Source: Rubripirellula sp.
Lineage (GTDB): Bacteria; Planctomycetota; Planctomycetia; Pirellulales; Pirellulaceae
NCBI GenBank assembly: GCA_965216875.1
Contig: OZ244207.1
Span: 6,496,001 to 6,560,000 of the forward strand
DNA: 64,000 nucleotides
Direction: 5' to 3'
A program made the translations under genes and the position numbers. Every line of letters starts with the position of its first letter. Position 1 is the stretch's first letter. This document shows, one piece after another, positions 7,811 through 60,245 of the stretch. Below the pieces are notes generated by a model. The model was not told the DNA's origin. It did not search any database and saw only the letters and a list, made by a program, of their open reading frames with translations.

Positions 7811-9301
<1,491 letters not shown>

Positions 9302-9374
9302 GGGAGGCAACCTTACGTTCGTGGGGTGCAAAAGTCATTGGGTGTAATACCTCTTGCGAGCCGCCACTGCCGAG

Positions 9375-9413
9375 GTTGCAACATTCCCGACCGGTGCTCG
9401 GAAACGTTACAAC
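9375..9413 (-). promoter_or_regulatory. 5'-leader stem-loop of the nrtA transcript
   Basis: Minus strand GTTGTAACGTTTCCGA-GCACCGG-TCGGGAATGTTGCAAC: 16-bp stem whose three imperfect pairs are all G-U on the transcribed strand; begins about 12 nt after the -12 element. Confidence 0.6.
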
Positions 9414-9422
9414 GGGCCTAAA

Positions 9423-9438
9423 TGCAACAGCCGTGCCA
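9423..9438 (-). promoter_or_regulatory. Sigma-54 (-24/-12) promoter for the nrtABCD-GAF-dmsBC-nasA operon
   Basis: Minus strand TGGCACGGCTGTTGCA, a perfect match to TGGCACG-N4-TTGCW. Confidence 0.8.
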
Positions 9439-9579
9439 AAACCACTTTGAGAGTTTTCTTTCGCATTCGCGAAGCGTGTTGATTCCGCCCCAGTGCGCAA
9501 CAATGTGAACCTTCCCCACCTTGTTGCTGAACATTCATCTCCGTTTCTTTTCCAAAGACCCGCTGGTTCATTGGGCAGC

Positions 9580-9596
9580 TGCCTGAGAATTAGGCG
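9580..9596. promoter_or_regulatory. Putative NtrC-type enhancer site
   Basis: TGCCT-GAGAATT-AGGCG, a 17-bp imperfect palindrome about 145 bp upstream of the sigma-54 promoter. Confidence 0.4.
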
Positions 9597-9656
9597 AGTG
9601 CCGAAAATCCGCGCAACTGCGGTAGGGGTGGCAAGGTAGGTTGTGGGGTAGTGCCC

Positions 9657-9750
9657 GTGAGCCCCCGGACGTGAGGCCTCGGGCGCGGCCCCGTTGGCAC
9701 GGTTTTGTGCCGTGTTAGGGGCCCAGCGTTCAGGGCCAGGGCGCTTACGC
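9657..9750 (-). repeat. REP-like family B, degenerate copy
   Basis: GTGAGC..CGTGAGGCCTCGGG...CGCTTACGC matches the copy at 49270-49370. Confidence 0.6.
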
Positions 9751-9785
9751 TTTACATGACCGCCAGGATTCACGGCCTTTCCCGC

Positions 9786-9920
9786 GCTCCAACAATCACC
9801 CTCCCGCTTGCGGGAGGGTCGGACGCAAAGTCCGGGGAGGGAACGATCTCAAATTATGCAACCCTCTCCGGGCCTTAGAGCCCGACTCTCCCAAGGGAGA
9901 GTGTTGACATGCGCAGTTTC
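9786..9920 (+). repeat. Palindromic intergenic repeat family A, copy 1
   Basis: GCTCCAACAATCACCCTCCCGCTTGCGGGAGGGTCGGACGCAAAGTCCGGGGAGGG...GAGCCCGACTCTCCCAAGGGAGAGTG; near-identical at 25051 and 59453, diverged at 50747. Confidence 0.92.
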
Positions 9921-10345
9921 TAGCCCGCAGCGCGTTGCGACTCGTGCGCTGCTTTGAGCATCACCGTGCTCAACGTGGTGTAGGTCTCCGTCCAGGCTTC
10001 TTTCACCTCCTCGGTAAAGTCGTCACCAAGACCTTGTTCGAGCGTCCACAACAAGGCGGCTCCTACGGTTTCGTAACTGTCGTCCGGGACACCGTAGCCG
10101 ACGTGCCGGCGACCAAGGTCTTCCACCGCCGGAATGATCGATTCGAGTCGGGTTAAGGATGTGACAGCGAGGTTCAAAGTGGCCATTAGCTTCTTGCCCT
10201 GCTCACTCATGTCTCCTTTGAAGAGCGATTGGAGCGAGGGGTCGAGGGTAAAGAGCCGGCCGTAAAAGAGTTGTGCGGCTTGCTCGGAGATGGGTTTGAC
10301 CTTTTCCCAGCTGGTTTGGACCAATTCAATTTGTTCGGGGGTCAT
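9920..10345 (-). CDS. Single-domain globin (flavohemoglobin/Vitreoscilla-Hb-like)
   Basis: LFYGRLF (B10 Tyr), QGKKLM (E7 Gln), LGRRHVGYGV (proximal His), VGAALLWTLEQGLG. Confidence 0.93.
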   Translation of the reverse strand: MTPEQIELVQTSWEKVKPISEQAAQLFYGRLFTLDPSLQSLFKGDMSEQGKKLMATLNLAVTSLTRLESIIPAVEDLGRRHVGYGVPDDSYETVGAALLWTLEQGLGDDFTEEVKEAWTETYTTLSTVMLKAAHESQRAAG

Positions 10346-10470
10346 TGGGTAGTTCTCTCGTTGGAGGGATCAAAGTGGTAAGGCGATTCGTTAGGAGCGA
10401 ATCAACTCGAAAGGATTGGGGGACCGGCATCCATGCCGACGCGACATCCCTGTTCGTTCATGCCAATCCA

Positions 10471-11112
10471 TTAAGGAAGGGGAACACGGACGAGGACGCC
10501 CCCCATGACGTCATCCTTGCCAAACTCTGGATAGTCATCACCGCGATTGGAGTGATCGTTGTGGCAACTCCAGCAAGCTTCGGCGACAGCTCGGTCGGGA
10601 TAGACCGCGACGAAGTAGTTTTTGCCACCGAGCGTTTCTTCGCCGTAAAAGTTCTCGCCGGGGTTGTCGCTCAAGAAATCAAGCGCCTTGGTCTCGAACT
10701 CGCTCTTCGGTTTGTGCTGTTCATTCAATGGCCACTTGCTGCGCAGTGAATAGGTGAAGCCAGCTTCCGGGTTTTCATCGACGAGCTCGGCGCCCATCCG
10801 GAACATTTGTGCCGGAAGCGGGATCGCGTTGTCCGTGTCGGACCAGTACTCGTCGGCGGTGACCGGAGCGTCCTGTTTCTTGAGATTTGTGACGACATGT
10901 TTGGCGTAGACCGTTCGGTCAGCCATCATCACGGCATGCACGCCATCGGCAAACATGCGTGGCGTGATACCAGCAGGCGGTGTCGACGACGCTTCCGAGG
11001 AACTGCAACCGGTCAGCATAAGGGTGGTCAGGACGATGACGACGCAAAGGCCGCCCACGCATTGTTCGATCTTGAACTCGCGTGATGCCGGGCGTTCGAA
11101 GAGACGGTTCAT
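10471..11112 (-). CDS. Monoheme c-type lipoprotein, DUF3365/Tll0287-like
   Basis: Lipobox LTGC, IPLPAQMFR, single CWSCH near the C-terminus, terminal VMGGVLVRVP. Confidence 0.78.
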   Translation of the reverse strand: MNRLFERPASREFKIEQCVGGLCVVIVLTTLMLTGCSSSEASSTPPAGITPRMFADGVHAVMMADRTVYAKHVVTNLKKQDAPVTADEYWSDTDNAIPLPAQMFRMGAELVDENPEAGFTYSLRSKWPLNEQHKPKSEFETKALDFLSDNPGENFYGEETLGGKNYFVAVYPDRAVAEACWSCHNDHSNRGDDYPEFGKDDVMGGVLVRVPLP

Positions 11113-11277
11113 AGTAGGTTTCTTTCACTTAGGTTGAGGGATCATGTTCGGTTTTGTTGACGCGAAGTCGTTCGCGGTACCAGCTCTCGCCAGAATCCTT
11201 CGGCAGGAAGTCAGTACCGCGAACCTTCGCATGCGATCGTTGCAATTACGGTGGGTGCATCGTTTTTCGGTTCACGT

Positions 11278-12717
11278 TCATTTCCCCGTGTTCGACTTTT
11301 CTCGAGTCCGCTTGCGCGCCTTGCGGGCCTGTTCTTTCAGCTCGAACCAGTCGTGAGCCATCCGCACACTCTCGTTTCGCTCAAGCGGAACGTCGGCGAA
11401 ACAGGAGTCAACGAGTTGGGGGTCCGAAAGCGCGCTCAACGAATACTCAAGTCCGTGGCAGTGCCCACAAACTTCTCGAGCCATCGTTTCGTTGGGCCGC
11501 AGGTTTGCGTTTTGGTCGTGGTTGACCCACACATCCCCGTCCTTTTCCAGACGTGGCATGTGGCAAGTCGCACAACTGACTCCGCTGCCAGCTGGAAGCT
11601 CGCCAGCAAGCTCTTTGTTCCAGAGATCTGCGTGAGCTGTGGTGTCGTAGGCGATCGTGTGTGCGTCGGCATGACACTGTTTGCAAGCACCAACGGATGC
11701 CCACTCGGTGTCAAATCGATGCCCGCCATGGCAACTGTTGCAAGTCAGCTCTCGATGGGCCGAGTCGGTGTGCATCGGCAGCCGGGCAAGCGATGGTGAC
11801 ATCGGCGAAAGGCCGACTGCCAATCGCATCCCGTGGCGACCGGTGACAAAGGACTCGGTTTGCGCTTCGTGACATTGACCACAGGCGTCCATCGAAACCG
11901 CATCGGACCAGTCTTTGGATTCGACGTCCGCGTGACAGGCACTGCAATTCACACCGGCAGCGGCGTGAGCCGTGCTGGCCCAGTCGTCAAGGATCGATTG
12001 GTCAAGTTGCTGATCGGTCGGACCGTCGTGTTGATGTGCTTGGAGTGATTGATCGTTGGCCTGTTTGGACTCCTTCCCTACTAGGGATGAGTCCCACGAC
12101 GTGAGGAAATTGCGAAGGGGAACGCGCGCTTCGGCAAGGTGATCGCTTTGTCCGAAGTGATCGTTGAGGTATTTCTCGTAGAGCGCACGATTGTCGTGGT
12201 AATTGTGACATCCAGCCGTCGAGCAACTGGTGTAAGAAAGGTCTGCGTGGCTCGGTCGGGAGTCGGCGACATCTTGATGACAGTGCCAGCAGTAGTCGTT
12301 GGGGACGGTTAGACCCATGGCCGAGGTTTGTTCGGGAACATGTTCCCGATGACACGTCAAACAGTTTTGTGCATCAAGCACAAGCAGCATGTCGGCGTTG
12401 GTCGGATCGTTGAATTTTTTGGCAGGATGCGTGTCGCTGGCGATTCGTAGTTGGTCGGCATGGCATCGATTGCACGCGTCCTGCATCACGGCGCCGACGG
12501 CCCCGGCGGCCGATTGGTCTTCCATCGCAGGCGCATGACAAGCATTGCAATCCAATTCGATTTGGTAATGACCGTGCGTGGTCTTGCCCGGCAGGAACGT
12601 GGTTTTGATCGATGATGCAGGTGCCAACAGCGCGTAGCTAAGGTAGCCTGCGATCACGAGGTTCAGGACCAACCAAGTTGTCCAACTGCGAGCATGTTTG
12701 CGAAGCATCGTTTCCAT
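11278..12717 (-). CDS. Membrane-anchored multiheme cytochrome c (10 CxxCH + 1 CxxxxCH)
   Basis: Start taken as METMLRKH (ATG 12717, 5 nt after the upstream stop). N-terminal TM. Motifs CNACH, CNRCH, CLTCH, CWHCH, CSTAGCH, CSACH, CGQCH, CNSCH, CKQCH, CATCH, CGHCH. Confidence 0.9.
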   Translation of the reverse strand: METMLRKHARSWTTWLVLNLVIAGYLSYALLAPASSIKTTFLPGKTTHGHYQIELDCNACHAPAMEDQSAAGAVGAVMQDACNRCHADQLRIASDTHPAKKFNDPTNADMLLVLDAQNCLTCHREHVPEQTSAMGLTVPNDYCWHCHQDVADSRPSHADLSYTSCSTAGCHNYHDNRALYEKYLNDHFGQSDHLAEARVPLRNFLTSWDSSLVGKESKQANDQSLQAHQHDGPTDQQLDQSILDDWASTAHAAAGVNCSACHADVESKDWSDAVSMDACGQCHEAQTESFVTGRHGMRLAVGLSPMSPSLARLPMHTDSAHRELTCNSCHGGHRFDTEWASVGACKQCHADAHTIAYDTTAHADLWNKELAGELPAGSGVSCATCHMPRLEKDGDVWVNHDQNANLRPNETMAREVCGHCHGLEYSLSALSDPQLVDSCFADVPLERNESVRMAHDWFELKEQARKARKRTREKSNTGK

Positions 12718-12722
12718 CACCC

Positions 12723-14765
12723 TCAGTCGCTGAACCAGTAGAAACTGAGAATGTGAAACGCAATCAGCAGCGGCAATGGCCAGAACAGCCAGAGGTGCAA
12801 ACGCGTCAGTCGGGGCCGCCAACATCGCAGCAGCATCGCCCACGATCCCTCCAATCGTGACTCGATGCTGCTGGCGATGCCGGCAAGCGTCCCGAAGATG
12901 GCCGTTCCAATGAAGACCAGCGAAAGAACCAAATTCAAGTTCTCGCCAAGGCGAAAGCCGGTATGCACGGCGATCGCAACAATGGCGGCTGTCCCCAAAA
13001 TGGCGTGTACGGCACGCCATAACCCATAGCTTCCAAACTGAAATCGGCTGATGCGTTTTCGCAGCGAGAAGATCATCCCCACAAGCATCAAACCGAGAAG
13101 CGTGAATCCGCTGAACTGACGCGCCACATCATCGCGCCAAAGCCAATCGATTTTTCGGTGTCCGTCGCGAACGCTTTCGGCCAGTGGGATAGGCGATGCG
13201 AGGATCAAGCCCACCAACAAGATCAAGCCAACGATCGAAGCAACCAGAACGGGTGTCGCGGCGGGTACTCGCGTCCCTTCCGATTTCTGCCCGGCAAGTT
13301 CGCATACTAACGATCGACAACTTCCGCACGCCGTTGATGCACCTGTGGTCTCGGCGAGTGCGTCCGGGCACGTCGTGCCGGCGGCAACCAAGTTTGCTAG
13401 CGCACCTTTGGTGACAGCGCGGCACGCGCAGACAATGCTTGATGCGGGCCATTGGGTTACCGAAAGCGTTCCGGTTTCTGGCCAGGGATTGCCAGTCAAT
13501 CGGAATCGCCGACGATGCCACGGCCACAATCGCGTCTGCCGGTGCACGGCCTGTCGAATCTGTGGCAACTCTTTCCATTGTCCGACACTTGCTGCGCCGA
13601 CGACGCAACCTTGATGAAGGATCAATTTGCGATAACAGTTGTCGGCCTTGAAAGTCAGCGTGATTCCATCCGGTTCGTCACCGATGGCGCGACCAAGCGC
13701 CGCAACGTCAACGCCAAGCAGCTTCAGTTCGGCCGACTCATCGGCACCCTCGAATGTTTCGTCGCCGCCAACGAGACGCGAAGCCAAGACATCCGCCATG
13801 CGGTAACAAGGAGCAACCAAGCCATACACGTGATCTCGGAAGCTTGCGCACTCACCGATCGCATGAATCGTTGGGTCACTGGTCGCAAGGTCCTCGGCAA
13901 TGGAAATTCCGCCACGCGGACCCACATCAAGTCCACACTCTCGAGCCAATTCGTCGTTCGGAATGACGCCCGCTGCAATGATCAAGATGTCGGTTTTGAG
14001 CGGTTTTGCATTGTCGAATCGAATCTCAAGTGTTTTGTCGTCCGTGGCCGCGATCGATCTGGCTCGACGCGTCAAATGAACATCTACTCCCAACGTTTCA
14101 ACGCGTTCTTTCAACAGTTCAGCGGCGCGCCAATCGAGTTGTCGTGGCATCAACCGGCCAGCCATCTCGACAACACTTGTTTGCAGTCCGAGATCAAAGA
14201 GGACTTTGGCTGCTTCCAATCCGAGCAGACCGCCTCCCATCACGACTCCGATCTTGGCCCGCCTTTCACGGACAAATTCGCCGATTCTCTCGAGATCGTC
14301 TAAAGTTCGATAAACGAAAACGCCCGGTTGATTGGCACCTTCGAGTTTGGGCAGGCGGGCACGCGAGCCGGTTGCCAAGACAAGCTGGTCGTACGGATGG
14401 ACATTCGCCTGGTCGTCAATGATGCAGCGTTGCTGGCGATCGATCTTGACGATCCGACGGCCAGTATGAAGTGTGATCTGATGGGTTTCGTACCAATCGG
14501 AGTCCGCAAGTTCGAGGGATTTGGGCGAACTGCCTTGCAAGCACTTTGAAAGATTCACCCGGTCGTAGGCAGGTGTTGGCTCTTCGCCAAAGATCGCGAC
14601 ATGAAAGTTGTCGATCGCGTTGCTTGAAACCAAACGCTGGCACAACCCATAACCAGCCATCCCGCCACCAACGATCAATAGTCGTGGCAAGACGCGGCTC
14701 GGGCGCACAGTCGAATCGTACGTCGATTGACTTGGTTGCGATGCAGCTTCGGTTGCGACAGCCAT
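12723..14765 (-). CDS. NirB-like FAD/NAD(P)H oxidoreductase + BFD [2Fe-2S] + C-terminal His-rich membrane domain
   Basis: GGGMAG, YDRVNLS, LVLATGS, GGGLLGLE, IGECAS..GLVAP, LKLLGVDVA (NirB N-terminal half); VCACR...CGSC; then about 5 TM helices with AVH, AVHTG, RLH, AFH. No sirohaem/[4Fe-4S] domain. Confidence 0.85.
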   Translation of the reverse strand: MAVATEAASQPSQSTYDSTVRPSRVLPRLLIVGGGMAGYGLCQRLVSSNAIDNFHVAIFGEEPTPAYDRVNLSKCLQGSSPKSLELADSDWYETHQITLHTGRRIVKIDRQQRCIIDDQANVHPYDQLVLATGSRARLPKLEGANQPGVFVYRTLDDLERIGEFVRERRAKIGVVMGGGLLGLEAAKVLFDLGLQTSVVEMAGRLMPRQLDWRAAELLKERVETLGVDVHLTRRARSIAATDDKTLEIRFDNAKPLKTDILIIAAGVIPNDELARECGLDVGPRGGISIAEDLATSDPTIHAIGECASFRDHVYGLVAPCYRMADVLASRLVGGDETFEGADESAELKLLGVDVAALGRAIGDEPDGITLTFKADNCYRKLILHQGCVVGAASVGQWKELPQIRQAVHRQTRLWPWHRRRFRLTGNPWPETGTLSVTQWPASSIVCACRAVTKGALANLVAAGTTCPDALAETTGASTACGSCRSLVCELAGQKSEGTRVPAATPVLVASIVGLILLVGLILASPIPLAESVRDGHRKIDWLWRDDVARQFSGFTLLGLMLVGMIFSLRKRISRFQFGSYGLWRAVHAILGTAAIVAIAVHTGFRLGENLNLVLSLVFIGTAIFGTLAGIASSIESRLEGSWAMLLRCWRPRLTRLHLWLFWPLPLLIAFHILSFYWFSD

Positions 14766-14851
14766 AGGCGGAGGGAGAACCCATGCAAGGGCGCAGTTGC
14801 CGCCTTCAACTGATGTTATTCATGTAATGGGCCAAGCTGTCGGGATCGCAG

Positions 14852-14883
14852 ACAACGTTTGCAACCGCTCACGCAAACGTTGT
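14852..14883 (-). promoter_or_regulatory. Leader inverted repeat upstream of the NirB-like gene
   Basis: Perfect 11-bp arms ACAACGTTTGC / GCAAACGTTGT with a 10-nt loop. Confidence 0.6.
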
Positions 14884-14907
14884 TAAAGCGAGCCGGAATG
14901 CAGGTAA

Positions 14908-14923
14908 TGCAACCGCCGTGCCG
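14908..14923 (-). promoter_or_regulatory. Sigma-54 (-24/-12) promoter for the NirB-like/multiheme operon
   Basis: Minus strand CGGCACGGCGGTTGCA with correct GG-N10-GC spacing; 13 of 16 positions identical to the nrtA promoter. Confidence 0.72.
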
Positions 14924-15053
14924 AAACGGATTCGGATGTCGTCTCAAGATCGTCTGTCGCCGGAACGAAGAGCGCAACCGTCAGTCATGGGCGCGATCCG
15001 AGCCACAGAGCGGTGTGAATTAGAAAATGTCAGTGCTCAAAACTAAGCCTGAG

Positions 15054-15070
15054 TGCACGTTAACTTTGCA
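15054..15070. promoter_or_regulatory. Putative NtrC-type enhancer site
   Basis: TGCAC-GTTAACT-TTGCA, one mismatch from TGCAC-N7-GTGCA, about 130 bp upstream of the sigma-54 promoter, with weaker TGC-starting sites on either side. Confidence 0.45.
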
Positions 15071-15369
15071 CGGTTGCGCAATCGTTAGGCCGCTGAAGAG
15101 GCCAAGTGCTCGTTGACTAGGCAAACTTTGCCGATTGCGACGTTCAGCCCGCTTTTCAGGGCCAGCTCCGAGAAACGAATCGCGAATACCGCAGGAATTC
15201 GCAACGATTTCGCCACGATCTACCGATGCATGAAAAACATCGCCTCAATCGGCGAGCGTACGATCGCACGATGGATTGTGTGTTTTTCAGGCGGTGAGCG
15301 ACACAGAATCCATGTTGCTGCGACGAAATCGATAGAGAAGAACAAATCCAGGAAGGGAGTCTCACTGCC

Positions 15370-16971
15370 ATGCGCGTTAAACGAACACGCCGCCGGTGGA
15401 TTGTGGCCGCGGCCATTTCCGCTGGTTTCTTCGCCAGCCCTGTGCTGGCATACGACGGAGAGGGAGGCGATGCAGCGCTTCAACCTGTCCCACTCGAAGA
15501 CCCATCCGCTTCCGACCAGGTTGTTGATCAACCTGTCGTGATGGAAGAGGAAGCCGAAGCGGTCGCGATTGCCGAACCGGTCGCATCCGTACCTTGCAAT
15601 TGCTGCAACAGCTACTGCTGCACCAAGAAGAAGAAGGAAGCGGCTACCGCAAAGATGAAAGGTGCCTACAAAGGCGTCTTCTATCAAAACGACTATAGCT
15701 ACCTCAATGACCGCTGCTACGATGGCCCCAGCTTCCTGGGCGATCGTCTGAAAGGTCTCCACTGTGGCAAACTCGACATTGGTGGCGAAGCACGCGTTCG
15801 TTTCCACAGCGAGAACAACCACCGTGGTCTCGGTCTGACCGGACGCGATGACCGCTTCTGGTTGACACGTGTTCGCGCGTTTGCCAACTACCGCGTCACC
15901 GAGAACATTCGCGTTTACGCTGAATACCTCTACGCCGACTCGGGCGGGGAAACGTTCAACAATCGACCGATCGAAGAAAACCGCGGTGAGTTGCAAAACG
16001 CACTCGTTGACTTGCAGCTAACCGAGCGTTTGTCGACTCGAATTGGTCGTCAAGAACTGCTCTACAGTGCACAGCGATTGGTTTCGCCGCTGGACTGGGC
16101 CAACACTCGTCGCACCTTCGACGGTGTTCGCGGAATCTACAAGGGCGACACCTGGACGCTTGATGGGTTCTTCGTGCATCCCGTGCGTCGTACAGCTGCT
16201 TTCGAAGACAAGATTGACAAGACCAATAACGACATCGACTTCTGGGGCATCTACGCCACCAGCGACAAGTACGAAATCGGTTTGGTCGAAGGCTACTACT
16301 TGGGTCTGAAGCACGACATCTTGAACTTCGATTTCCACACCTTTGGAAAGCGAATTTCGGGAACAAGCGACCGAGGCATCATGTATGACCTCGAAGGTGG
16401 CTTCCAAGTTGGCGAAAACAGCAACGGTTCAAGTCACGGCGCTTTCTTCTCGACCACTGGTTTGGGCAAGAAACTCAGCATCTGCACTCGATGCGGCGAA
16501 TGGAACCCAATCGTCTGGTTCTTCTACGATTACGCTTCGGGCGAGAAGGATTTCAACCAAGTCGGTGTTGGCGACGATGGCTTCCATCACCAATTCCCAC
16601 TGGCTCACAAGTACAACGGTTTCATGGACTTGTTCGGACGTCGTAACTTGCACGACATCAACGCACAGTTCATCACTCCGATCTTGGGATCGAAAGTCAA
16701 GTTGCTGCTGTGGTACCACTACTTCCGATTGGCAGAGCGAACCACGCCATACAACGTGAACATGACTCCGTTCAACACCGTGGCTGCTGCTGGAAGCCGT
16801 GACCTGGGTCACGAGATCGACGTGTTGTTCAACATCAACCTCAACCCACGTAACAACGTTTTGGTTGGTTACTCGTTCTTCAGTGCTGGTGACTACTACG
16901 ACACCACACCAGGTGTTCCAACCAACGCTGACGCAGACTTCTTCTACATGCAGTATCAAACTCGCTTCTAA
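15370..16971 (+). CDS. Alginate export (AlgE-like) outer-membrane beta-barrel porin
   Basis: Signal peptide, RIGRQELLYSAQRLVSPLDWANTRRTFDG, amphipathic beta strands, C-terminal YQTRF. Confidence 0.82.
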   Translation: MRVKRTRRRWIVAAAISAGFFASPVLAYDGEGGDAALQPVPLEDPSASDQVVDQPVVMEEEAEAVAIAEPVASVPCNCCNSYCCTKKKKEAATAKMKGAYKGVFYQNDYSYLNDRCYDGPSFLGDRLKGLHCGKLDIGGEARVRFHSENNHRGLGLTGRDDRFWLTRVRAFANYRVTENIRVYAEYLYADSGGETFNNRPIEENRGELQNALVDLQLTERLSTRIGRQELLYSAQRLVSPLDWANTRRTFDGVRGIYKGDTWTLDGFFVHPVRRTAAFEDKIDKTNNDIDFWGIYATSDKYEIGLVEGYYLGLKHDILNFDFHTFGKRISGTSDRGIMYDLEGGFQVGENSNGSSHGAFFSTTGLGKKLSICTRCGEWNPIVWFFYDYASGEKDFNQVGVGDDGFHHQFPLAHKYNGFMDLFGRRNLHDINAQFITPILGSKVKLLLWYHYFRLAERTTPYNVNMTPFNTVAAAGSRDLGHEIDVLFNINLNPRNNVLVGYSFFSAGDYYDTTPGVPTNADADFFYMQYQTRF

Positions 16972-16999
16972 TCGAGCGACTGCGGAAACGTAGAACAGA

Positions 17000-17046
17000 A
17001 AACAAAACGCTCCCGTGGATACGATCCGCGGGAGCGTTTTTTGTTT
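17000..17046. terminator. Bidirectional intrinsic terminator
   Basis: AAACAAAACGCTCCCGTGGAT-ACG-ATCCGCGGGAGCGTTTTTTGTTT between convergent genes. Confidence 0.85.
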
Positions 17047-17071
17047 GCTTGATTGGCGCTGCGGCGACTCG

Positions 17072-18943
17072 TTACTTCAGGCCAACGCTCAGCCAACCGC
17101 TCGAGGCGTCCACCAACGCCGTTTCGAAGACACGGCCACGCAAGGATTTGATTCTTGCTTCCTGCGAAATCTCCATCGAACGGTCGAGCAAGGTTTCGGG
17201 AAAGACCTTGCTGAACTTGGTTTGGATCGCTGGCTTCAAGCCTGCCTGTGTGACGGTCAAGCGTTTGCGTCCGGGGAAGTTCACTTCGACTTCGCCATCA
17301 CGGACCAGGATGAGCTTGCCTTCTTCGGTAGACGCGACTTGATAAATCGCGGTGATCTCCATCGAGCGTTTGAGTTCGCGCCGCCCTTGAGTGAATTTTG
17401 TCCCGCGGACACCGATGCGGATTTTCTGGTCGCGAGCTTCGAACACAATCGGTTGCAAACTTGCAAAGCTGATTTCGAACGACGGCTCGGTAGGTTCGCC
17501 CTCTTTCTGAGGTGAGGACATGTCGCGACCCACCGCCTTCATCAAGCGATTGAGTTGGCTTTCCTTGAGCGTTCGTCCCGCCAGAACAGGGCTGAACGCG
17601 TTGTTGATCACCGACTCGTGAACTTGGAACAAGGCTCCGAAATCGGCATCGACGTTCGGTGGGGAGACAACCGTCGAAAGTTGGTCGCCAGTTCGAAACA
17701 CCGAATCGACACTTACCCAATCGCTTGTCGACGTCCATGCGCGCGACGGCTCGGAAAGGGACAAGCGTTGCAGAAGCGACCTCAGGTTGTCGAGCCGTCC
17801 GGGAGGTCCACCCGCCAAGGCGTCGTCGGTTCGTTGCGTGAAGTTGTCGGCAACTTGTCGACGCATTCTCGACAGCGCGATGCGATCGGCGCGAGGCTTC
17901 TGCTGTGCTGCTTTCTTGCGAGCGATGTTTCGAACCAACCGCATCTTGTGTTCGATCGCACGTATGTCGGTTCGCAATGCGGCTTGAACTTGTGTGGGTT
18001 CCATGTGAACGCCCGAATCATCAAAGTTCACGATTCGCGTCGCCGTGACGTCACCGCAGCCAACGGTGCGAAGACGCACCGGTCCGTTGTAACCGGTGTT
18101 GTTGCTGGTCACCGTGCCAGCAAGCGATACCTCAAGACGAACGCTACCGGTTGCTGGAAGCAAGTCGGCCGAGACCACACCGTTCATGGTCGCTTGTCCA
18201 ACGATCCGAGTGCCCAAGATGCAGTCGTAAACCGGACGGGTTTGAACGACGTCTTGGTGAACGGCTTCTTGTACCAGACCTTCGCTAATCAAGATCGCGA
18301 CATTGGGATGGTCAAACGTGTTGCGGACCGCGGTGATGGCGCCGGGGGCTTGCCCCGACGAGTGAATCGAAGCAACCAATGCCGAAATCGCTGCAATGTC
18401 GCCGGACGAAGGCGAAGCATCGAGCTGGCTGATGCGGCTTGCCAACGATTCAAGTTGTTTGCTGATCCCTTCGATTGCCTTTTCTTTGTTGCGAAAGCGA
18501 AGTGAATCAATCAGCTGTGAAAGGTTGTCACGCAGTTTCGTAAGCGGTTCGAGCTCGAGCCCCTCGTGGGTTCCGATCAGCCGATATCGCAGTGCCACCG
18601 CTTCACGACCAATCACCGGTACTTCACTACCTTCGGTGAGTGCTTGGTGAAGCGGATCAAGTTCCAAGTAATCAAGCCAAGATTGTTCGTTGTCGCCAGA
18701 TGTGTTCGTGCCGAAGAAAGACTTGACCGCTGAAATCTGATCCAGCACGAGTGGGCGGGCCGATTCGTAGTCGGGAAGCCGCGAAGCATCCAAGTCGGTC
18801 GCTGCCGCCTTGATTTCGGCCACCATTTGCTCACGTTCGGCGTCGGTCAACGTTGCTGCGACCGGTTGGCAGCAGGCAACCGAGAACAGGCCGGCTGCGG
18901 CAAGCAAAGCAATGGGGGAACGAAAAAGTGAATGCAAAGGCAT
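17072..18943 (-). CDS. Secreted hypothetical protein
   Basis: 623-aa ORF with a signal peptide, helical N-terminus and beta-rich C-terminus. Confidence 0.75.
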   Translation of the reverse strand: MPLHSLFRSPIALLAAAGLFSVACCQPVAATLTDAEREQMVAEIKAAATDLDASRLPDYESARPLVLDQISAVKSFFGTNTSGDNEQSWLDYLELDPLHQALTEGSEVPVIGREAVALRYRLIGTHEGLELEPLTKLRDNLSQLIDSLRFRNKEKAIEGISKQLESLASRISQLDASPSSGDIAAISALVASIHSSGQAPGAITAVRNTFDHPNVAILISEGLVQEAVHQDVVQTRPVYDCILGTRIVGQATMNGVVSADLLPATGSVRLEVSLAGTVTSNNTGYNGPVRLRTVGCGDVTATRIVNFDDSGVHMEPTQVQAALRTDIRAIEHKMRLVRNIARKKAAQQKPRADRIALSRMRRQVADNFTQRTDDALAGGPPGRLDNLRSLLQRLSLSEPSRAWTSTSDWVSVDSVFRTGDQLSTVVSPPNVDADFGALFQVHESVINNAFSPVLAGRTLKESQLNRLMKAVGRDMSSPQKEGEPTEPSFEISFASLQPIVFEARDQKIRIGVRGTKFTQGRRELKRSMEITAIYQVASTEEGKLILVRDGEVEVNFPGRKRLTVTQAGLKPAIQTKFSKVFPETLLDRSMEISQEARIKSLRGRVFETALVDASSGWLSVGLK

Positions 18944-19144: not shown

Positions 19145-19228
19145 GAGCCGTGATCGCGTAAGCGGCCGGGCCTTGCACCCCTTTTGCGAATCTCGGGGGC
19201 CCGACGCTAGCTAGCGCGTTCCGCTCAC
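19145..19228 (+). repeat. REP-like family B copy
   Basis: GAGCCGTGATCGCGTAAGCGGCCGGGCC...GGGCCCGA...CGCTCAC. Confidence 0.8.
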
Positions 19229-47360: not shown

Positions 47361-49160
47361 TTAGAACTTTGCCGCTCCATGCATTTCGGCCAATTCTTCG
47401 GCCGTCATCTTGGCGACCTCGCGGTCATAGGTCAGCAGGCCGTTGACTTCGCCTTCGACATCGGTCGTCTGTGTGTAGACGCCGCCTGCAACGCCGCGTC
47501 GTCGCAGGTCCATCAGCGTTTCGAACGATTTCTTGTAGCGCGACGTGTACTCTTGCTTGGTTTGAGGAAGCCCGCCGTAGCCCCAGTTGCGCATTTCGAT
47601 GTTCCATTGGTGACCTTTGACGACCAACCCGTGACCGCCGAATTCGCCGACCACTTTCACATAATCATTCAGTCGGCGGTCTTCGAATGGAAACATCGGC
47701 TCGGGATAGTTGTGTCGGTCTGCCACGTCGCCGACCGGAAAGAAGTTTCCGCCGCTGGCGATGTTGACTAACCGCGTGATGTCGAGGTTCTCCATCGTTT
47801 GGCCGATCCGTACCGTTTCGTGTTGTCCCCAGCGTTCGTTGAAAGGGACCCACATGACGATTGATGGGTTGTTTCGCAAATTGCTGACCATGGCTTTCAG
47901 TTCGGCCATGAATTGATCGTGTTGGTCTTTGGGCCAAACATCTTCCACGGGGTTGGGGGCGAGTTTGCTCCAGAAAGGTCGTCCCCCTGTGCTGGGCATG
48001 TCCTGCCAAACGAGCATTCCTACACGATCACAGTAGCTATAGAAACGTCGCGGTTCGATCTTGATGTGTTTACGGATCATGTTGAATCCGGATCGTTTCA
48101 GATAGTCGACGTCGAACCGCATCGCTTCGTCACTGGGTGGCGTTAGCAACCCATCAGGCCACCAGCCTTGATCGAGTGGCCCATAGTGAAAGATGACGTT
48201 GCCATTGAGCGTCATGCGAACGTGACCAGCGGGCCCGCGTTTGACCCCCACTTCTCGCATCGCGGCGTACGATTCCACTCGATCAATCACGCGTCCATCA
48301 CCACCAAGAAGTTCAATCGTGATGTCGTAAAGGTGGGGCGTGTCGGGAGTCCAGTGTTTTGCATTCGGAATCCGAACACTTAGCGAAGCGTCAGCCATAC
48401 CGACAACCCGATCGCCGTCACGAACGGTAATCCGCAACTCTTCGCCGTCGACAGGATCACCACCGAGTGTTGGCAAGACACGCAAGGTTCCTTCGCCCAA
48501 TCGCGGCTTCATCTTGACACTCTTGATGCGACGATCCGGAATCTGTTCGAGCCAAACCGTCTGCCAGATTCCCGAGACACGTGTGTAATAAATGCCACGT
48601 GGCTTGAGCGTTTGTTTGCCGAGTGTTTGAAGGGGCGCCGTTTTGTCGATGACGCGAACGACAAGCTCGTTGTCACCTTGTTCCACGGCGTCGGTGATGT
48701 CGAAGGAAAACGGATCGCTGCTGCCAACGTGTTTGCCGACACTCTTGCCATTGACGAAGACTTCGCAGTCGTAGTCGACCGCTTCAAAGTTCAATCGCGT
48801 GCGATGTCCGGGCCGTGGCTTGTGCGAAAAACTGCGTCGATACCAAAGCACTTCCTTCGGATCGAGCAAATGGCCTACGCCACTTAGCGCTGACTCGATC
48901 GCGTACGGTACCAAGATCTTGCCGTCGAAAGTTTTTGGCGCAGCCTTGTTGGCTTCGCTAGTAACCTTGTAATCCCAAAGCCCGTTGAGGTTCGTCCATG
49001 ACTCGCGAACAAACTGCGGTCGCGGGTATTCCTGCCAAGCGTTCTCGGGTGTGACCTCTTTTCCCCAACGGGTCAGCATGGTGTTCTCGACCGGCGACCA
49101 TTGGGCAAAGCCAGGAGCGCAAACGAGCAAGAAGGCGGCGATGAAAAGGTGACGAACCAT
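47361..49160 (-). CDS. Glycoside hydrolase family 2
   Basis: Signal peptide, YPRPQ, LNGLW, SGIWQTVWLE, GPLDQGWWPDG, RKHIK, WVPFNE, VGEFGG, YTQTTDVEGEVNG. Confidence 0.9.
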   Translation of the reverse strand: MVRHLFIAAFLLVCAPGFAQWSPVENTMLTRWGKEVTPENAWQEYPRPQFVRESWTNLNGLWDYKVTSEANKAAPKTFDGKILVPYAIESALSGVGHLLDPKEVLWYRRSFSHKPRPGHRTRLNFEAVDYDCEVFVNGKSVGKHVGSSDPFSFDITDAVEQGDNELVVRVIDKTAPLQTLGKQTLKPRGIYYTRVSGIWQTVWLEQIPDRRIKSVKMKPRLGEGTLRVLPTLGGDPVDGEELRITVRDGDRVVGMADASLSVRIPNAKHWTPDTPHLYDITIELLGGDGRVIDRVESYAAMREVGVKRGPAGHVRMTLNGNVIFHYGPLDQGWWPDGLLTPPSDEAMRFDVDYLKRSGFNMIRKHIKIEPRRFYSYCDRVGMLVWQDMPSTGGRPFWSKLAPNPVEDVWPKDQHDQFMAELKAMVSNLRNNPSIVMWVPFNERWGQHETVRIGQTMENLDITRLVNIASGGNFFPVGDVADRHNYPEPMFPFEDRRLNDYVKVVGEFGGHGLVVKGHQWNIEMRNWGYGGLPQTKQEYTSRYKKSFETLMDLRRRGVAGGVYTQTTDVEGEVNGLLTYDREVAKMTAEELAEMHGAAKF

Positions 49161-49269
49161 AGCCAAGGTGTCCGGCGTAGAATGGAAGGAAGCGCTGCGA
49201 GGTGACAGTCTATTTGATCCGCTCGGTGAATGAGAGGAAGGAACCACGGATAGCACGGATGATTGCCGA

Positions 49270-49370
49270 GTGAGCGGCTTTGGCGTGAGGCCTCGGGCCC
49301 TGACCGCGCGCAGGTAGCGTGCAATGCCCGGCCGCTTACGCGATCACGGCTCAATTGAGTGGACTTGGGA
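49270..49370 (-). repeat. REP-like family B copy, bracketed by GAACCACGGATA direct repeats (49241, 49372)
   Basis: Reverse complement matches 59805-59913. Confidence 0.82.
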
Positions 49371-49424
49371 CGAACCACGGATAAAACGAATCACACGAAT
49401 GTTGGAAACGGGGATAGGAGCGGC

Positions 49425-50708
49425 ATGAACCGAAGGGACGACGACATCACCGCGCCACTGCTTGATCGCTTGCGCAAACTTGAGTGTCCGACCTCGTTTG
49501 CAGATGTGATTGGTGCGATGGAGGCGACCGATGCCATTTCTCCGATGCGCTCGTTCGAACGACTGGAGGAGGCACTGGAGCGTTTCCCAAGATTCATCGG
49601 CGAGTGTGTCCCACGGATTTGGCACTGGGCCGTCGAGGCGTCTTCGGAACTACCGGCCATCCCTTTGCTAGACGAGACAGGCGTCGTGACGTTGACGCAG
49701 CGCGAGTGTTTGATCGTCTTGTCGAACGCTTTTCTTTGTACCTATGCCGGCCGAGTGAGCGACGATTGTCTCAGCGGTGATCGTTTGCCGTCGATCAACT
49801 TCGACGAGCTTTACGGCGGTCATGGTTGGGGGAATGTCGAAGTTGAAAAGCTCATGATGTTGCTTTCGTACTTTGAACAGATGTGCCAGCGCGACGAAGC
49901 TGGTGACGCGCTGGATCGACGAATAGGATTCCATCGGCGACGTGCATCGGAATCGTCTACCGAGAATTGGGGCCAGTGCGAGCAATTGCTGAGACCCGTG
50001 AGCGTTGCCGAGCTTGGTGAATCGCTTGATGACGCCAAGTCGATGTATCGCGTCGATTTCGCGAATCGCATCATCGGTGGAGCGGCGATCGCGTTTGGCA
50101 ACGTGCAAGAAGAAATCATGTTCTGTGAATGCCCAGAAATGATCGTCGCACGATTGTTCTGCCCGGCGATGCGAGACGATGAAGCCATCGTGATCGTAGG
50201 CGCCGAACAATTCACTCAGCATTCAGGCTACGCCGGTTCATTGCGCTACGAAGGGCGTTATCGCGATCAATCCGAAATTTCTGACGGACAGCTTCAGTCT
50301 TACGTTGTCGCGCTCGATGCGCTCGATTTGCGAGGCCGAAATCCACAGAGCCAATACGACTCGTCACTTATCCAGCGGGATCTAACCAAAGCCTGGGCAG
50401 GTTTCGACGAACCGGGCACGCCAGAAGTGGTCGCGACAGGCAACTGGGGATGTGGCGTTTTCGGTGGCGATGCAGAGCTGAAGACTTTGATTCAATGGCT
50501 CGCGTGTAGTCGCGTCGGAAAAGCGATGGCCTACTTTCCGTATGATCATCGTGGCTTGGCTAAACGTCTCGGCCCACTTGCAAACGCACTGATCGAGCAA
50601 AGGGTGACGGTTGGCCAGTTGGCAAGGTTTCTGTTCCAAACGCTCGAGCCAAATGACGTCTTTGATCAAGTCGCCAGAGAATTTGGTATGCAGAATCTTA
50701 ATGGTTGA
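49425..50708 (+). CDS. Poly(ADP-ribose) glycohydrolase, canonical (eukaryote-like) macrodomain type
   Basis: VDFANRIIGGAAIAFGNVQEEIMF..CPE.IVARLF, GAEQFTQHSGY, ALDAL, RDLTKAWAGF, ATGNWGCGVFGGD, LIQWLACS; AGGAG upstream of ATG 49425. Confidence 0.88.
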   Translation: MNRRDDDITAPLLDRLRKLECPTSFADVIGAMEATDAISPMRSFERLEEALERFPRFIGECVPRIWHWAVEASSELPAIPLLDETGVVTLTQRECLIVLSNAFLCTYAGRVSDDCLSGDRLPSINFDELYGGHGWGNVEVEKLMMLLSYFEQMCQRDEAGDALDRRIGFHRRRASESSTENWGQCEQLLRPVSVAELGESLDDAKSMYRVDFANRIIGGAAIAFGNVQEEIMFCECPEMIVARLFCPAMRDDEAIVIVGAEQFTQHSGYAGSLRYEGRYRDQSEISDGQLQSYVVALDALDLRGRNPQSQYDSSLIQRDLTKAWAGFDEPGTPEVVATGNWGCGVFGGDAELKTLIQWLACSRVGKAMAYFPYDHRGLAKRLGPLANALIEQRVTVGQLARFLFQTLEPNDVFDQVAREFGMQNLNG

Positions 50709-50746
50709 TCTAGCTCTAAATGTCACGCACTGTTTCAACAGAAACT

Positions 50747-50846
50747 ACCCTCCCACTTGTGGGAGGGTCGGGCGCTAAAGCCCGGGGAGGGCCGTTTGAG
50801 GTGCCCCTCACCGGGCCTGAGAGCCCGACTCTCCCAAGGGAGAGTG
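50747..50846 (+). repeat. Palindromic repeat family A, diverged copy 3
   Basis: ACCCTCCCACTTGTGGGAGGGTCGG...GAGCCCGACTCTCCCAAGGGAGAGTG with compensatory stem changes. Confidence 0.85.
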
Positions 50847-50877
50847 CCAGTCGGATTCATGGCATTTTGAGCATGAC

Positions 50878-52041
50878 CTACGCGTTTTCGATGAGTGTCA
50901 GGTTGTCTCGGTGGACGACGCTCTCGTAGGGTCGATGACCGAGGATGTCGGCGATCTTGTCACTTGGTTGTCCCAGGATCCGCTCGACTTCCGATGAAGG
51001 GTAGTTGCACAGACCACGGGCGAACTCCTGGCCGCTGGGTCCGCGAAGTGAAACCACACTGCCCTGTTGGAATTGGCCTTCGACGTTGGTGATGCCGATG
51101 GCTAACAGGCTTGAACCCTTTTCGCAGACCGCTTTGGTGGCACCGGCGTCGAGTGTCAAGTTGCCAGCGACTCTTGCGGCACTGCCGATCCAGCGGCGGC
51201 GACCACGAATTGATTTTTCGGGCGCAAGAAAGAGTGTGCCGACATCTTGGCAATCAAAAACTTTGTCGAGGACTTGGTCATCATGTCCCGGCGCGATGAT
51301 CGTCGGATGTCCATGTGAGGTCGCCACGCGGGCTGCCTCCAGTTTGCTTGCCATTCCCCCTTTGCTCATCCCTGACTTTTTGTCGATCGCCAGCGCGGTG
51401 ATGGAATCGTCAATCGATTCGACCAGAGGGATTCGTTTGCTTTGCGGTAATTCGGGTGATCCGTCGTACAACCCGTCAACATCGGAGAGGATGATCAACA
51501 ACGCTCCGCCAAGAAGCCCTGCGACTTGAGCGGCCAGGCGATCGTTGTCGCCAAAGGTGGTCATCAATTCTGAGACGGCGACGGAATCGTTTTCGTTGAC
51601 GATCGCTATTGAGTTGTAGGCGTGGATTTGCGTCAACGCGTTGCGAACGTTCAGGTAGCCGCTGCGTCGCCTCAGGTCTGAAGCGGTCAACAAGACTTGC
51701 GCGGCGTGTCGGCTATGTTTGGCAAAGGCCGTTTCGTAGGCTTGGATCAGATCGGTCTGGCCGACGGCCGCAACCGCTTGCAGTTGGGCGAGTCCCCCCG
51801 GGCGTCGATTGAGTCCTAGTTTGCCCATGCCGGCACCAACAGCACCGCTGCTGACCATCACCGTTTGCCGCCCCGAGTCGGCGATCCGACAAAGTTGGGC
51901 GGCCAGCAAGTCGACGCGCGCGCGATCAAGTTTGCCTTCCGGAGTGGTCAGGACACGCGTGCCCACTTTGACGACGACGCTTTGGGCGTTGTCGATCACC
52001 AAGCGGCGGGGATCGTCACTGGAGGGGGCAGACGCGTTCAT
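50878..52041 (-). CDS. proB: Glutamate 5-kinase
   Basis: VVVKVGT, VSSGAV, NENDSV, FGDND, GGMASKLEAA, C-terminal PUA domain (VVHRDNL). Confidence 0.95.
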   Translation of the reverse strand: MNASAPSSDDPRRLVIDNAQSVVVKVGTRVLTTPEGKLDRARVDLLAAQLCRIADSGRQTVMVSSGAVGAGMGKLGLNRRPGGLAQLQAVAAVGQTDLIQAYETAFAKHSRHAAQVLLTASDLRRRSGYLNVRNALTQIHAYNSIAIVNENDSVAVSELMTTFGDNDRLAAQVAGLLGGALLIILSDVDGLYDGSPELPQSKRIPLVESIDDSITALAIDKKSGMSKGGMASKLEAARVATSHGHPTIIAPGHDDQVLDKVFDCQDVGTLFLAPEKSIRGRRRWIGSAARVAGNLTLDAGATKAVCEKGSSLLAIGITNVEGQFQQGSVVSLRGPSGQEFARGLCNYPSSEVERILGQPSDKIADILGHRPYESVVHRDNLTLIENA

Positions 52042-52376
52042 TTCGATGCTGGCGCGCTCGATTCGAGGTGGTTTACAAAAAAGTTTTTTCAATCTTTTGC
52101 GGCACGATTGCGTTGTCGAGCCGATCAGATTGTCATGGGGAATCGACGAACCTGGAAGGCCATCGTAAATTCAGATACAAGAGAGCAACGCCTGCTCAAA
52201 CGAGTTCGCCCCACTTTGGCGAGGTCGCAAAACCGTCAGTCACGGCTTTCTAGCCTAATTCCCGTGTTTCGGGCAACGTCCTGGAACGACAAAAAGCCGT
52301 CACTCATCGTTTTGCGACTGCACCAAGTACTGCCCCAACCGGCGCAGCAACGACCCCCGAAAATGAATCACTCGTT

Positions 52377-59576: not shown

Positions 59577-59787
59577 CCTAGTGGAAGCGAAATTGCAATC
59601 CGCAGCACTAGCAAGGGGACAGGCGGATCAACCCAGGGGACAGGCGCTTGGCATGAACCGGGCATGAACCGGGGACAGGCACCTGTTTACAGCCAGGTCC
59701 ACTTTCGACTTGCCATGGGGACAGGGACTTGCCATGGGGACAGGCACTCATCTAGGGGACAGGCATTTGTGCTACGAATTGCGTTTT

Positions 59788-60245
59788 CAGCAGCAGAAGT
59801 CTTTGCCCAAGTTCACACAACTGAGCCGCGATCGCGTAAGCGGCCGGGCCTTAGTCGCCTTCACACTCGCTGCGCGTCGGCAAGGGCCCGAGCCCTGACG
59901 GCCAGCGGCTCACGAGATGCTCTGTCCCCGCTCGGATCGTTTGGTGCCTGTCCCCCGCGCGGTCCGCTTCAACATCTCCGGATTCTGCTAGTGCTCTGTC
60001 CCCGTCAAAGGTGCACTTCCAGCAGCAGAAGTCTTTGCCCAAGTTCACACAATTGAGCCGCGATCGCGTAAGTGGCCGGGCCTTAGTCGCCTTCAAACTC
60101 GCTGCGCGTCGGCAAGGGCCCGAGGCCTGACAGCCAGCGGCTCACGAGATGCTCTGTCCCCGCTTGGATCGTTTGGTGCCTGTCCCCTGCGCGGTCCGCT
60201 TCAACATCTCCGGGTTCTGCCAGTGCTGTGTCCCCGCCAAAGGTG
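59788..60245 (+). repeat. Tandem duplication with 232-bp period; each unit holds a family B repeat (59805-59913, 60037-60145)
   Basis: CAGCAGCAGAAGTCTTTGCCCAAGTTCACAC begins at 59788 and 60020; the units differ by scattered substitutions. Confidence 0.92.

Follow-up and report, generated by a model that had tools for sequence, protein, structure and literature searches.

A canonical, eukaryote-type poly(ADP-ribose) glycohydrolase gene, probably acquired horizontally, in a planctomycete genome encoding two PARPs

The subject of this analysis is a single gene within a 64,000-nucleotide stretch of Rubripirellula sp. DNA (contig OZ244207.1, positions 6,496,001 to 6,560,000; hereafter the window). 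Located at window positions 49425-50708 on the plus strand, it encodes a protein of 427 residues which almost certainly belongs to the canonical poly(ADP-ribose) glycohydrolase (PARG) family. The interpretation we favor, with moderate confidence, is that of an active, cytoplasmic and horizontally acquired canonical PARG whose substrate is most likely the poly(ADP-ribose) (PAR) made by two WGR-containing PARPs encoded elsewhere in the same genome. A eukaryote-type PARG at this locus had been proposed earlier from the DNA letters alone (hereafter the original prediction).

Both domains of a canonical PARG are recognizable in the protein. Its macro-fold catalytic domain (residues 180-378; 49962-50558, plus strand) scored 218.1 bits (E = 1.3e-64) with the Pfam family PARG_cat_C (PF05028), whose cutoff is 26.3, covering positions 2-205 of the 207 in the model. 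The accessory region (residues 56-159; 49590-49901, plus strand), helical in the structural model, matched PARG_cat_N (PF20811) at 60.3 bits against a cutoff of 25.6 (E = 2.8e-16). Neither DUF2263 (PF10021) nor Macro (PF01661) matched at E ≤ 0.01, and no NCBIfam model matched the protein. Among solved structures, the best phmmer matches were to Drosophila, mouse, rat and human PARG (1.5e-57 to 1e-52), followed by Tetrahymena PARG (4e-31); no bacterial-type PARG chain appeared in the list of PDB matches. An AlphaFold2 model built from 26 sequences (pLDDT 92.3, pTM 0.92) was compared with solved structures in Foldseek. Its query-normalized TM scores were 0.82-0.86 with human, mouse and rat PARG, over approximately 435 columns in which the N-terminal part is included; with Tetrahymena PARG they were 0.74-0.76, and with the bacterial-type enzymes of D. 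radiodurans (5ZDC) and T. curvata (3SIH) 0.31-0.33. Taken together, the Pfam matches and the animal-like fold uphold the assignment to canonical PARG in preference to DUF2263 or another macrodomain. Every sequence and fold character we compared, save one glycine, sides with the canonical PARGs, and the protein lacks the hallmarks of the bacterial type.

That glycine lies in the catalytic loop (residues 211-230; 50055-50114, plus strand), which reads DFAN-x3-GGA-x7-QEE and comprises N214, G218, G219, A220, Q228, E229 and E230. All of the motifs quoted in the original prediction were found, including the intact QEE, the alanine (A220) replacing the third glycine, and the accessory-region motif LTQRECLIVLSNAFLCT at residues 90-106. 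Further downstream, alignment to mouse and Drosophila PARG places Tyr269 of an SGYAG motif (50223-50237, plus strand; TGYAE in mouse) at the adenine-clasp tyrosine of the animal enzymes, a register which we take to be that of human Tyr795. The diphosphate-binding loop ATGNWGCGVFGGD (residues 337-349; 50433-50471, plus strand) contains G-V-F at residues 344-346, aligned to GAF in mouse. N214, G218, G219, Q228, E229, E230, Y269 and F346, as well as the whole of G-V-F, are invariant in 26 of 26 aligned sequences. The latter fits the G[A,V][F,Y] patch, with its phenylalanine (human Phe902), described for canonical PARGs, in which Gln-Glu-Glu follows a conserved Asn where microbial PARGs have Asp (Rack et al. 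2020). The protein is likely to be catalytically competent. It is probably also cytoplasmic, because its N-terminus has no hydrophobic stretch: inspection of the first 50 residues, made without a predictor, found no signal-peptide-like segment, a longest hydrophobic run of 2 and a maximum 15-residue Kyte-Doolittle mean of 0.85, which agrees with the absence of a signal peptide noted originally.

The extent of the gene merits comment. The plus-strand open reading frame (ORF) runs from a GTG at 49359 to 50708 and would specify 449 residues, with the likely true start being the ATG at 49425, which gives 427 residues plus stop. This ATG is preferred because a Shine-Dalgarno-like AGGAG (49416-49420, plus strand) lies 4 nucleotides upstream of it, the gene call of a public collection (P0001) is likewise of 427 residues, and the N-termini of 25 relatives align there. 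The in-frame extension (49359-49424, plus strand) overlaps a dispersed repeat at 49319-49369, within which the GTG itself falls; no residues in the N-termini of the relatives match it, and it is probably untranslated. The span of 49241-50846 given originally took in the gene together with both intergenic flanks. A promoter scan returned 0 sigma-70-like sites, a result which is uninformative for such an organism.

Canonical PARGs are scarce in the surrounding phylum. We surveyed 440 genomes besides that of the window (G000), namely 40 relatives and 400 genomes drawn evenly from the phylum. Full-length PF05028 was found in 0 of the 40, which include two genomes of the same genus (84% and 97% complete), and in 0 of the 400; five of the 440 showed only a partial match of 42-45 bits, which comes from the separate family described below. 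The original prediction had named wide occurrence and vertical inheritance as evidence that would count against it, and neither is seen in this lineage, where the gene is missing from all 440 genomes and from the corresponding GH2 and proB junctions of relatives (below). It is not unique among bacteria: when the order to which G043 belongs (a metagenome-assembled genome, MAG, titled Polyangiales) was surveyed with a hidden Markov model (HMM), 15 of its 201 genomes proved to carry full-length canonical PARGs of another clade. Across 185,579 species genomes, a pattern-based scan located 25 PARG loci, all in MAGs and several on contigs of 87-792 kb. By MAG title these comprised one Planctomycetia, three Verrucomicrobiota, one Riflebacteria and three other proteobacterial loci, the rest being mostly Myxococcota or 'Deltaproteobacteria'. 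The pattern was derived from an alignment and undercounts such loci; a single-protein query gave no matches. In a representative library of 1.84 billion proteins, 889 clusters of the family were found at E ≤ 1e-30, most of them long and eukaryote-like, with the short bacterial forms constituting a small minority.

Two side observations concern the family's composition. The PF05028 match in G018, considered as a second PARG, was not counted, being a partial, 44-bit match to a different PARG-like family of approximately 335-378 residues. Members of that family (L145 910-1917; L004 456-1592; L143, L144, L146) match only the C-terminal half of PARG_cat_C, at 42-50 bits, carry a TGFWGCGAFGG diphosphate loop and a divergent catalytic loop, and are found both in the order of G043 and elsewhere in the phylum; they may constitute an undescribed PARG-like macro family. 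Separately, a metagenomic protein of 1500 residues (P0121) contains two tandem, complete PARG units, each with PARG_cat_N and PARG_cat_C.

To place the gene among its homologs, 271 HMM-matching sequences were trimmed to the PARG envelope, of which the 256 with broad coverage were retained and 15 partial sequences (including L004, L011 and L029) dropped. All 256 were analyzed with FastTree, and 111 hand-thinned rows (145 omitted) with IQ-TREE under LG+C20 with posterior mean site frequencies (PMSF) and the Shimodaira-Hasegawa-like approximate likelihood ratio test (SH-aLRT); both trees are unrooted. The window PARG falls among short proteins that form one clade, with 61 rows in the larger tree and a median length of about 406-420 residues, and that include every named MAG sequence of the GGA type. 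This clade sits inside a set with 99% SH-aLRT support (51 of the 111 rows), in company with longer unnamed proteins and two euglenid transcripts, from the phagotrophic Entosiphon and Ploeotia. According to a cluster look-up, these transcripts are the only named rows of the 28-row sister group. No extra Pfam domains were present in 12 sister-group members and neighbors, the metagenome scan did not return the contigs of the group, and the nearest protein-atlas clusters are eukaryote-dominated, which we regard as a lead and not as evidence.

The Polyangiales-type sequences, by comparison, form a clade of their own (96% support) inside a different 99% set, together with marine-protist transcriptome sequences, one of them labeled as of pelagophyte source. 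A Verrucomicrobiaceae sequence on a long branch (L026) is placed elsewhere again. Constraining the two main bacterial groups to a single clan lowers the log-likelihood by 86.5 units and is rejected by the approximately unbiased (AU) test (p = 0.0004; 52 rows, LG+G4, with the groups chosen post hoc). These placements suggest at least two independent transfers of PARG between eukaryotes and bacteria. A fairly probable direction is from eukaryote to bacterium, the simplest one because the family is general in eukaryotes (Perina 2014) and patchy in bacteria. For the window gene itself, horizontal acquisition, as originally suggested, is the best reading of its absence from 440 genomes of the phylum, its absence at the junction in relatives and its position in the tree.

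Viral collections contributed three further PARGs, two of them from contigs of giant-virus MAGs. One giant-virus sequence (L060 3041-4057) pairs with a marine-protist transcript at 99% support inside the set which contains the Polyangiales clade, and the other two viral sequences pair with one another. Giant viruses might be carriers in such transfers.

The window genome, a single contig of 8.26 Mb that is 99% complete, supplies a plausible source of substrate. For several of its genes the nearest relatives that bear a name are Planctomycetota MAGs. Its only two PF00644 (PARP) matches lie far from the window (C1:6496001-6560000), at C1:4671085 (PARPa; WGR, PARP_reg and PARP domains, about 480-500 residues) and C1:214345 (PARPb; WGR and PARP domains, 577 residues). 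Aligned to human PARP4 and PARP2, both display His, Tyr and Glu motifs corresponding to the H-Y-E triad. Four macro (PF01661) genes are present, all outside the window and one directly after PARPa, as are a bacterial-type PARG and two ADP-ribosylhydrolase (ARH) genes. The gene had originally been termed solitary, with neither PARP nor DarT in the window. As a statement about the window this stands, both PF00644 genes being elsewhere; as a statement about the genome, which also encodes two H-Y-E WGR-PARPs and the further erasers and macro proteins just listed, it does not. A genome-wide search for DarT (PF14487) came back empty, and since the control genomes were unmatched too, this is a weak blank.

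Surrounding PARPa is an arrangement worth recording in its own right. In L057 (G000:C1:4662000-4681999), positions 8117-17429, HEAT/ARM, SWIM and reverse-transcriptase genes come immediately after the PARPa-macro pair, and an ARH gene after these. The genes that follow PARPa-macro match the PADLOC models of a type XIII retron (WGR_XIII 8.5e-92, SWIM_XIII 4e-190, RT_XIII 9e-167). A homolog of the HEAT/ARM gene also follows the pair in G176 and G046, and a reverse-transcriptase fragment lies directly upstream of the PARPb ortholog in G016. PARP is never mentioned in the retron classification paper. The PARPa-macro pair itself has counterparts of 62-67% identity in G046 (carrying a window-type PARG), G043 and G044 (PARGs of the other clade) and G176 (no PARG found), and has more than 100 close metagenomic relatives, some of them named Isosphaeraceae, Gemmataceae, Sandaracinaceae and Myxococcota.

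Co-occurrence across genomes ties bacterial canonical PARGs to PARPs more broadly. In the order of G043, a PARP was found in 14 of the 15 genomes with full-length PARG versus 21 of 186 without (Fisher p = 2e-11, the genomes being kin and not independent); excluding the three genomes which had pointed us to this order, the figures are 12 of 12 versus 21 of 186. In the phylum survey, a PARP scored above cutoff in four of the 440 genomes. A partnership between bacterial canonical PARGs in general and PARPs is well supported by these data; that the window PARG in particular partners with the endogenous PARPs is a proposition we favor only slightly. In the account of Perina (2014), the presence of PARG in bacteria does not track that of PARP, most PARG-bearing bacteria having no PARP, and alternative roles are suggested.

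If the enzyme acts as its homologs do, a PAR chain would dock its terminal ADP-ribose in the cleft of the macro domain, where Tyr269 and Phe346 would grip the adenine and place the distal ribose under strain. Asn214 would contact the 3''-OH, and Glu230 of the QEE, which aligns with the catalytic Glu of animal PARGs, would donate a proton to the 2'-OH that leaves when the ribose-ribose O-glycosidic bond is broken. ADP-ribose would thereby be released, mainly in exo mode, and the protein-proximal unit would stay in place, its removal presumably falling to the ARH enzymes or to the macro protein whose gene adjoins PARPa. As to its history, the bacterial clade most likely descended from a protist-type PARG, and a rearrangement junction, with GH2 on one side and proB on the other, would be where the gene was inserted or retained.

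Several observations weigh against this interpretation. Within the window's own clade a PARP exceeds the cutoff in only two of eight carrier genomes (G000 and G046), being below cutoff or missing in G041, G042, G047, G048, G649 and G650, where MAG completeness is not given; the strong co-occurrence reported above stems from the other bacterial clade, whose related genomes are not independent. Neither PARP nor macro genes lie beside PARG in any of 26 genome loci or 83 viral and metagenome loci. The bacterial-type PARG of the window genome (PF10021, 2e-46) could clear PAR, as could its two ARH enzymes, one of which is encoded about 7 kb from PARPa, and the canonical PARG may therefore be redundant or act on another substrate. 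None of the datasets listed as holding the PARG stretch is recorded as RNA. The third glycine of GGG-x6-8-QEE is replaced. The composition of the gene is only mildly atypical among 3310 long ORFs (GC 54.8%, 14th percentile; GC at third codon positions 58.9%, 6th percentile; codon usage, 28th percentile), so that the transfer was not recent or the donor was similar in composition. Finally, neither tree has a root, and within the 28-row sister group only the two euglenid transcripts have a named source, so that the direction of transfer is one that we infer. Of the bacterial-type PARG we note in passing that it is of 278 residues (L058 7574-8407; G000:C1:4459573-4460406), is flanked by a PQQ/beta-propeller protein and a Ser/Thr protein kinase, and is unlinked to either PARP.

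Three functions had been put forward in the original prediction, of which the endogenous turnover of PAR leads, because the genome encodes two H-Y-E WGR-PARPs along with other erasers, and the reversal of toxin- or phage-borne ADP-ribosylation and the scavenging of external PAR have fared less well. Reversal of mono-ADP-ribosylation is poorly matched to the enzyme because canonical PARGs are described as cutting ribose-ribose bonds and leaving the protein-proximal unit in place (Rack et al. 2020; Mikolcevic et al. 2021). A broader form of this proposal, in which the substrate consists of foreign ADP-ribose polymers or ribose-ribose-linked signals in conflicts with phages or toxins and the enzyme serves in defense or counter-defense, is in our judgment unlikely. 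It would accommodate the six carrier genomes without a detected PARP, the variable junction at which the gene resides, the alternative roles raised for bacterial PARGs without PARP (Perina 2014), and the position of PARPa beside a type XIII retron, which brings PAR chemistry close to a candidate defense system. It must also contend with an active site of the standard PAR hydrolase type, with 0 PADLOC-DB 2.0 families matching the PARG protein at E ≤ 0.001, and with the lack of any adjacent defense, toxin or mobile gene in the window or in the loci of nine relatives. Nutrient scavenging of eukaryotic PAR from prey, hosts or detritus is less credible still, and we think it very improbable. There is no export signal or hydrophobic N-terminus, no transporter or nucleotide-salvage gene adjoins PARG, and the nearby glycoside hydrolases (GH2, DUF5722), which together with the mention of environmental PAR recycling by bacterial PARGs (Perina 2014) speak for this idea, do little to carry it: GH2 is divergent from PARG and shares no operon with it, and the GH2 ortholog in G002 has no PARG beside it. 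We would be equally surprised to find a dead or decaying remnant, at most a binder of ADP-ribose. The replaced glycine speaks for it, but is a trait of the lineage and no private lesion, at a position that varies inside the Pfam family: the third position is alanine in 55 of the 61 clade members (GGG in five, GGS in one) and in 15 of 28 sister-group sequences, versus 2 of 167 other canonical PARGs, where GGG prevails (162). Retention of this residue at 37-61% identity implies long purifying selection, QEE and the preceding Asn are kept in 59 of the 61, and the 427-residue frame is intact, with all other active-site residues conserved and a fold predicted at high confidence.

With respect to origin, the converse history would make the bacterial clade ancient and of bacterial descent, with eukaryotes having received canonical PARG from such bacteria and the window gene surviving as a relict. 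The unrooted trees allow this, the bacterial forms are minimal (about 400-430 residues, without a regulatory extension), and eukaryotes have repeatedly adopted bacterial ADP-ribosylation systems (Mikolcevic 2021). We nevertheless deem it quite improbable, given at least two separate bacterial placements, each in a 99% SH-aLRT set with different protists, the rejection of a single bacterial clan (AU p = 0.0004), the gene's absence from the other 440 genomes of the phylum, the occurrence of canonical PARG across all eukaryotic supergroups (Perina 2014), and the long, eukaryote-like character of most of the 889 clusters. A more elaborate extension of our favored reading, which we offer as a conjecture and consider improbable, is that a complete, eukaryote-style PAR cycle was assembled from separately transferred parts (a WGR-PARP as writer, canonical PARG as chain eraser, macro or ARH proteins as terminal erasers) and tied to the type XIII retron. 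The multicopy single-stranded DNA (msDNA) of the retron, or disturbance of that DNA when phages infect, would switch PARPa on, PARG would reset the signal, and bacteria possessing the PARP-Macro pair would have captured protist PARGs at least twice, rebuilding the eukaryotic pair of writer and eraser convergently.

Comparison with known enzymes helps to define what is new here. The vertebrate and insect PARGs (human 4B1H, mouse 4FC2, rat 3UEK, Drosophila 8ADJ) share with the window protein the helical and macro domains, the Asn-x3-GG-x-QEE loop, the tyrosine clasp and the G-[A/V]-F loop, at 28-30% identity in Foldseek structural alignments. They differ from it in that the window protein has 427 residues and no N-terminal regulatory or targeting region, has GGA for GGG, and is encoded on a bacterial chromosome. 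Tetrahymena thermophila PARG (4EPP, 4L2H) is similarly minimal, with 436-439 residues resolved and no vertebrate regulatory domain, yet at 22-23% identity it is farther from the window protein than are the animal enzymes; many PARG paralogs are reported in this ciliate (Perina 2014). Bacterial-type PARGs (T. curvata 3SIH, D. radiodurans 5ZDC, H. aurantiacus) catalyze the reaction predicted for the window protein, apply the same QEE logic on a macro fold and sometimes accompany a PARP; unlike it, they are single-domain proteins with Asp in place of Asn and a ribose cap that makes them strict exo-enzymes (Rack 2020; Mikolcevic 2021). The closest genomic parallels are Herpetosiphon aurantiacus and Clostridioides difficile CD160, each of which combines an H-Y-E WGR-PARP with a PAR glycohydrolase and whose PARylation is reversed in vitro by the cognate PARG (Mikolcevic 2021). 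Their erasers are apparently of the bacterial type (Mikolcevic 2021), whereas that of G000 is eukaryote-type and unlinked to its PARPs. The Polyangiales-type PARGs of myxobacterial MAGs (L012-L028) are likewise canonical, usually accompanied by a PARP (14 of 15) and share the PARPa-Macro module with G000; they represent a separate acquisition, with GGG in 16 of 16 and 31-40% identity to the window protein.

Published treatments place canonical PARG 'primarily in higher organisms' (Rack 2020), and Perina (2014) counts canonical PARGs in eukaryotes only. Bacterial PARPs are listed from six phyla by Mikolcevic (2021), Planctomycetes not being among these. Our full-text literature search, which covered main texts, turned up no description of a canonical PARG from bacteria, whether planctomycetes, myxobacteria or others. 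The gene adds a bacterial representative to an established enzyme family. Its assignment there involves no novelty, since 'poly(ADP-ribose) glycohydrolase' is the name that proteins of this sort already receive from database pipelines. What the genome adds is a eukaryote-type eraser together with two H-Y-E PARPs on one complete bacterial contig, and to the specialist the pattern of co-occurrence and the repeated acquisition will be more surprising than the gene as such. Should the protein prove active, it would offer biochemists a compact, 427-residue canonical PARG free of a regulatory domain, a prokaryotic setting in which to study the full PAR cycle, and a clear case of repeated transfer of a signaling eraser between eukaryotes and bacteria.

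Turning to the locus, PARG is flanked by a GH2 (glycoside hydrolase family 2) glycosidase (47361-49256, minus strand), divergently transcribed, and by proB (50878-52092, minus strand), which is convergent with it and encodes glutamate 5-kinase with a PUA domain; both neighbors were identified through Pfam. The block p269-pil435-CinA-purF-proB is kept in G001 and G002, of the same genus, and in G016, of the same family, with conservation stopping at the 3' end of proB, its last gene; GH2 forms an edge of the junction. Neither PARG nor GH2 adjoins the block in any of these three genomes. In G001, proB abuts mem429-nth-DUF5722. In G002, the GH2 ortholog (81% identity) lies approximately 100 kb from proB, still adjoining nth, with a gene of 275 residues in the place of PARG. 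Examination of the GH2 and proB surroundings in relatives, proposed originally as a check, thus found PARG beside neither ortholog in the same-genus genomes, and the gene occupies a rearrangement junction and is specific to this lineage. Beyond the window, the neighbors of clade-member PARGs are ordinary bacterial genes, and none is conserved clade-wide.

The gene does have repeats on both sides, as had been described, and no special meaning attaches to them. Upstream lies a copy of a dispersed repeat (D7, I1-I3; 49319-49369) with further window copies near 19145, 59806 and 60038 and 190 copies genome-wide. Downstream lie the palindromic repeat D4 (50747-50786; 172 copies), whose stem resembles a terminator hairpin when read on the minus strand, and D2 (50803-50863; 125 copies), which is usually paired with D4; all three counts allow up to 4 mismatches. 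Because the families differ from one side to the other and each numbers about 125-190 copies, these are generic intergenic elements and no matched cassette pair.

Two minor observations remain, one from the loci of related PARGs and one from the window. Among four such loci (L009 1820-3025; L010 1333-1950; L006 1495-3156; L064 5200-6495), a DUF3293 protein, in one case as a fusion with an HD domain, begins at the PARG stop codon in two, both myxobacterial, and a calcineurin-like metallophosphoesterase is found beside or near PARG in the other two; these proteins may be downstream partners in ADP-ribose processing. Within the window, the D4/D2 and D7 families are each present in four copies, against roughly 1.3-1.5 expected per 64 kb from the genome-wide counts, and two tandem units of 232 nucleotides (59780-60243), which are 94% identical, contain copies of the PARG-upstream repeat.

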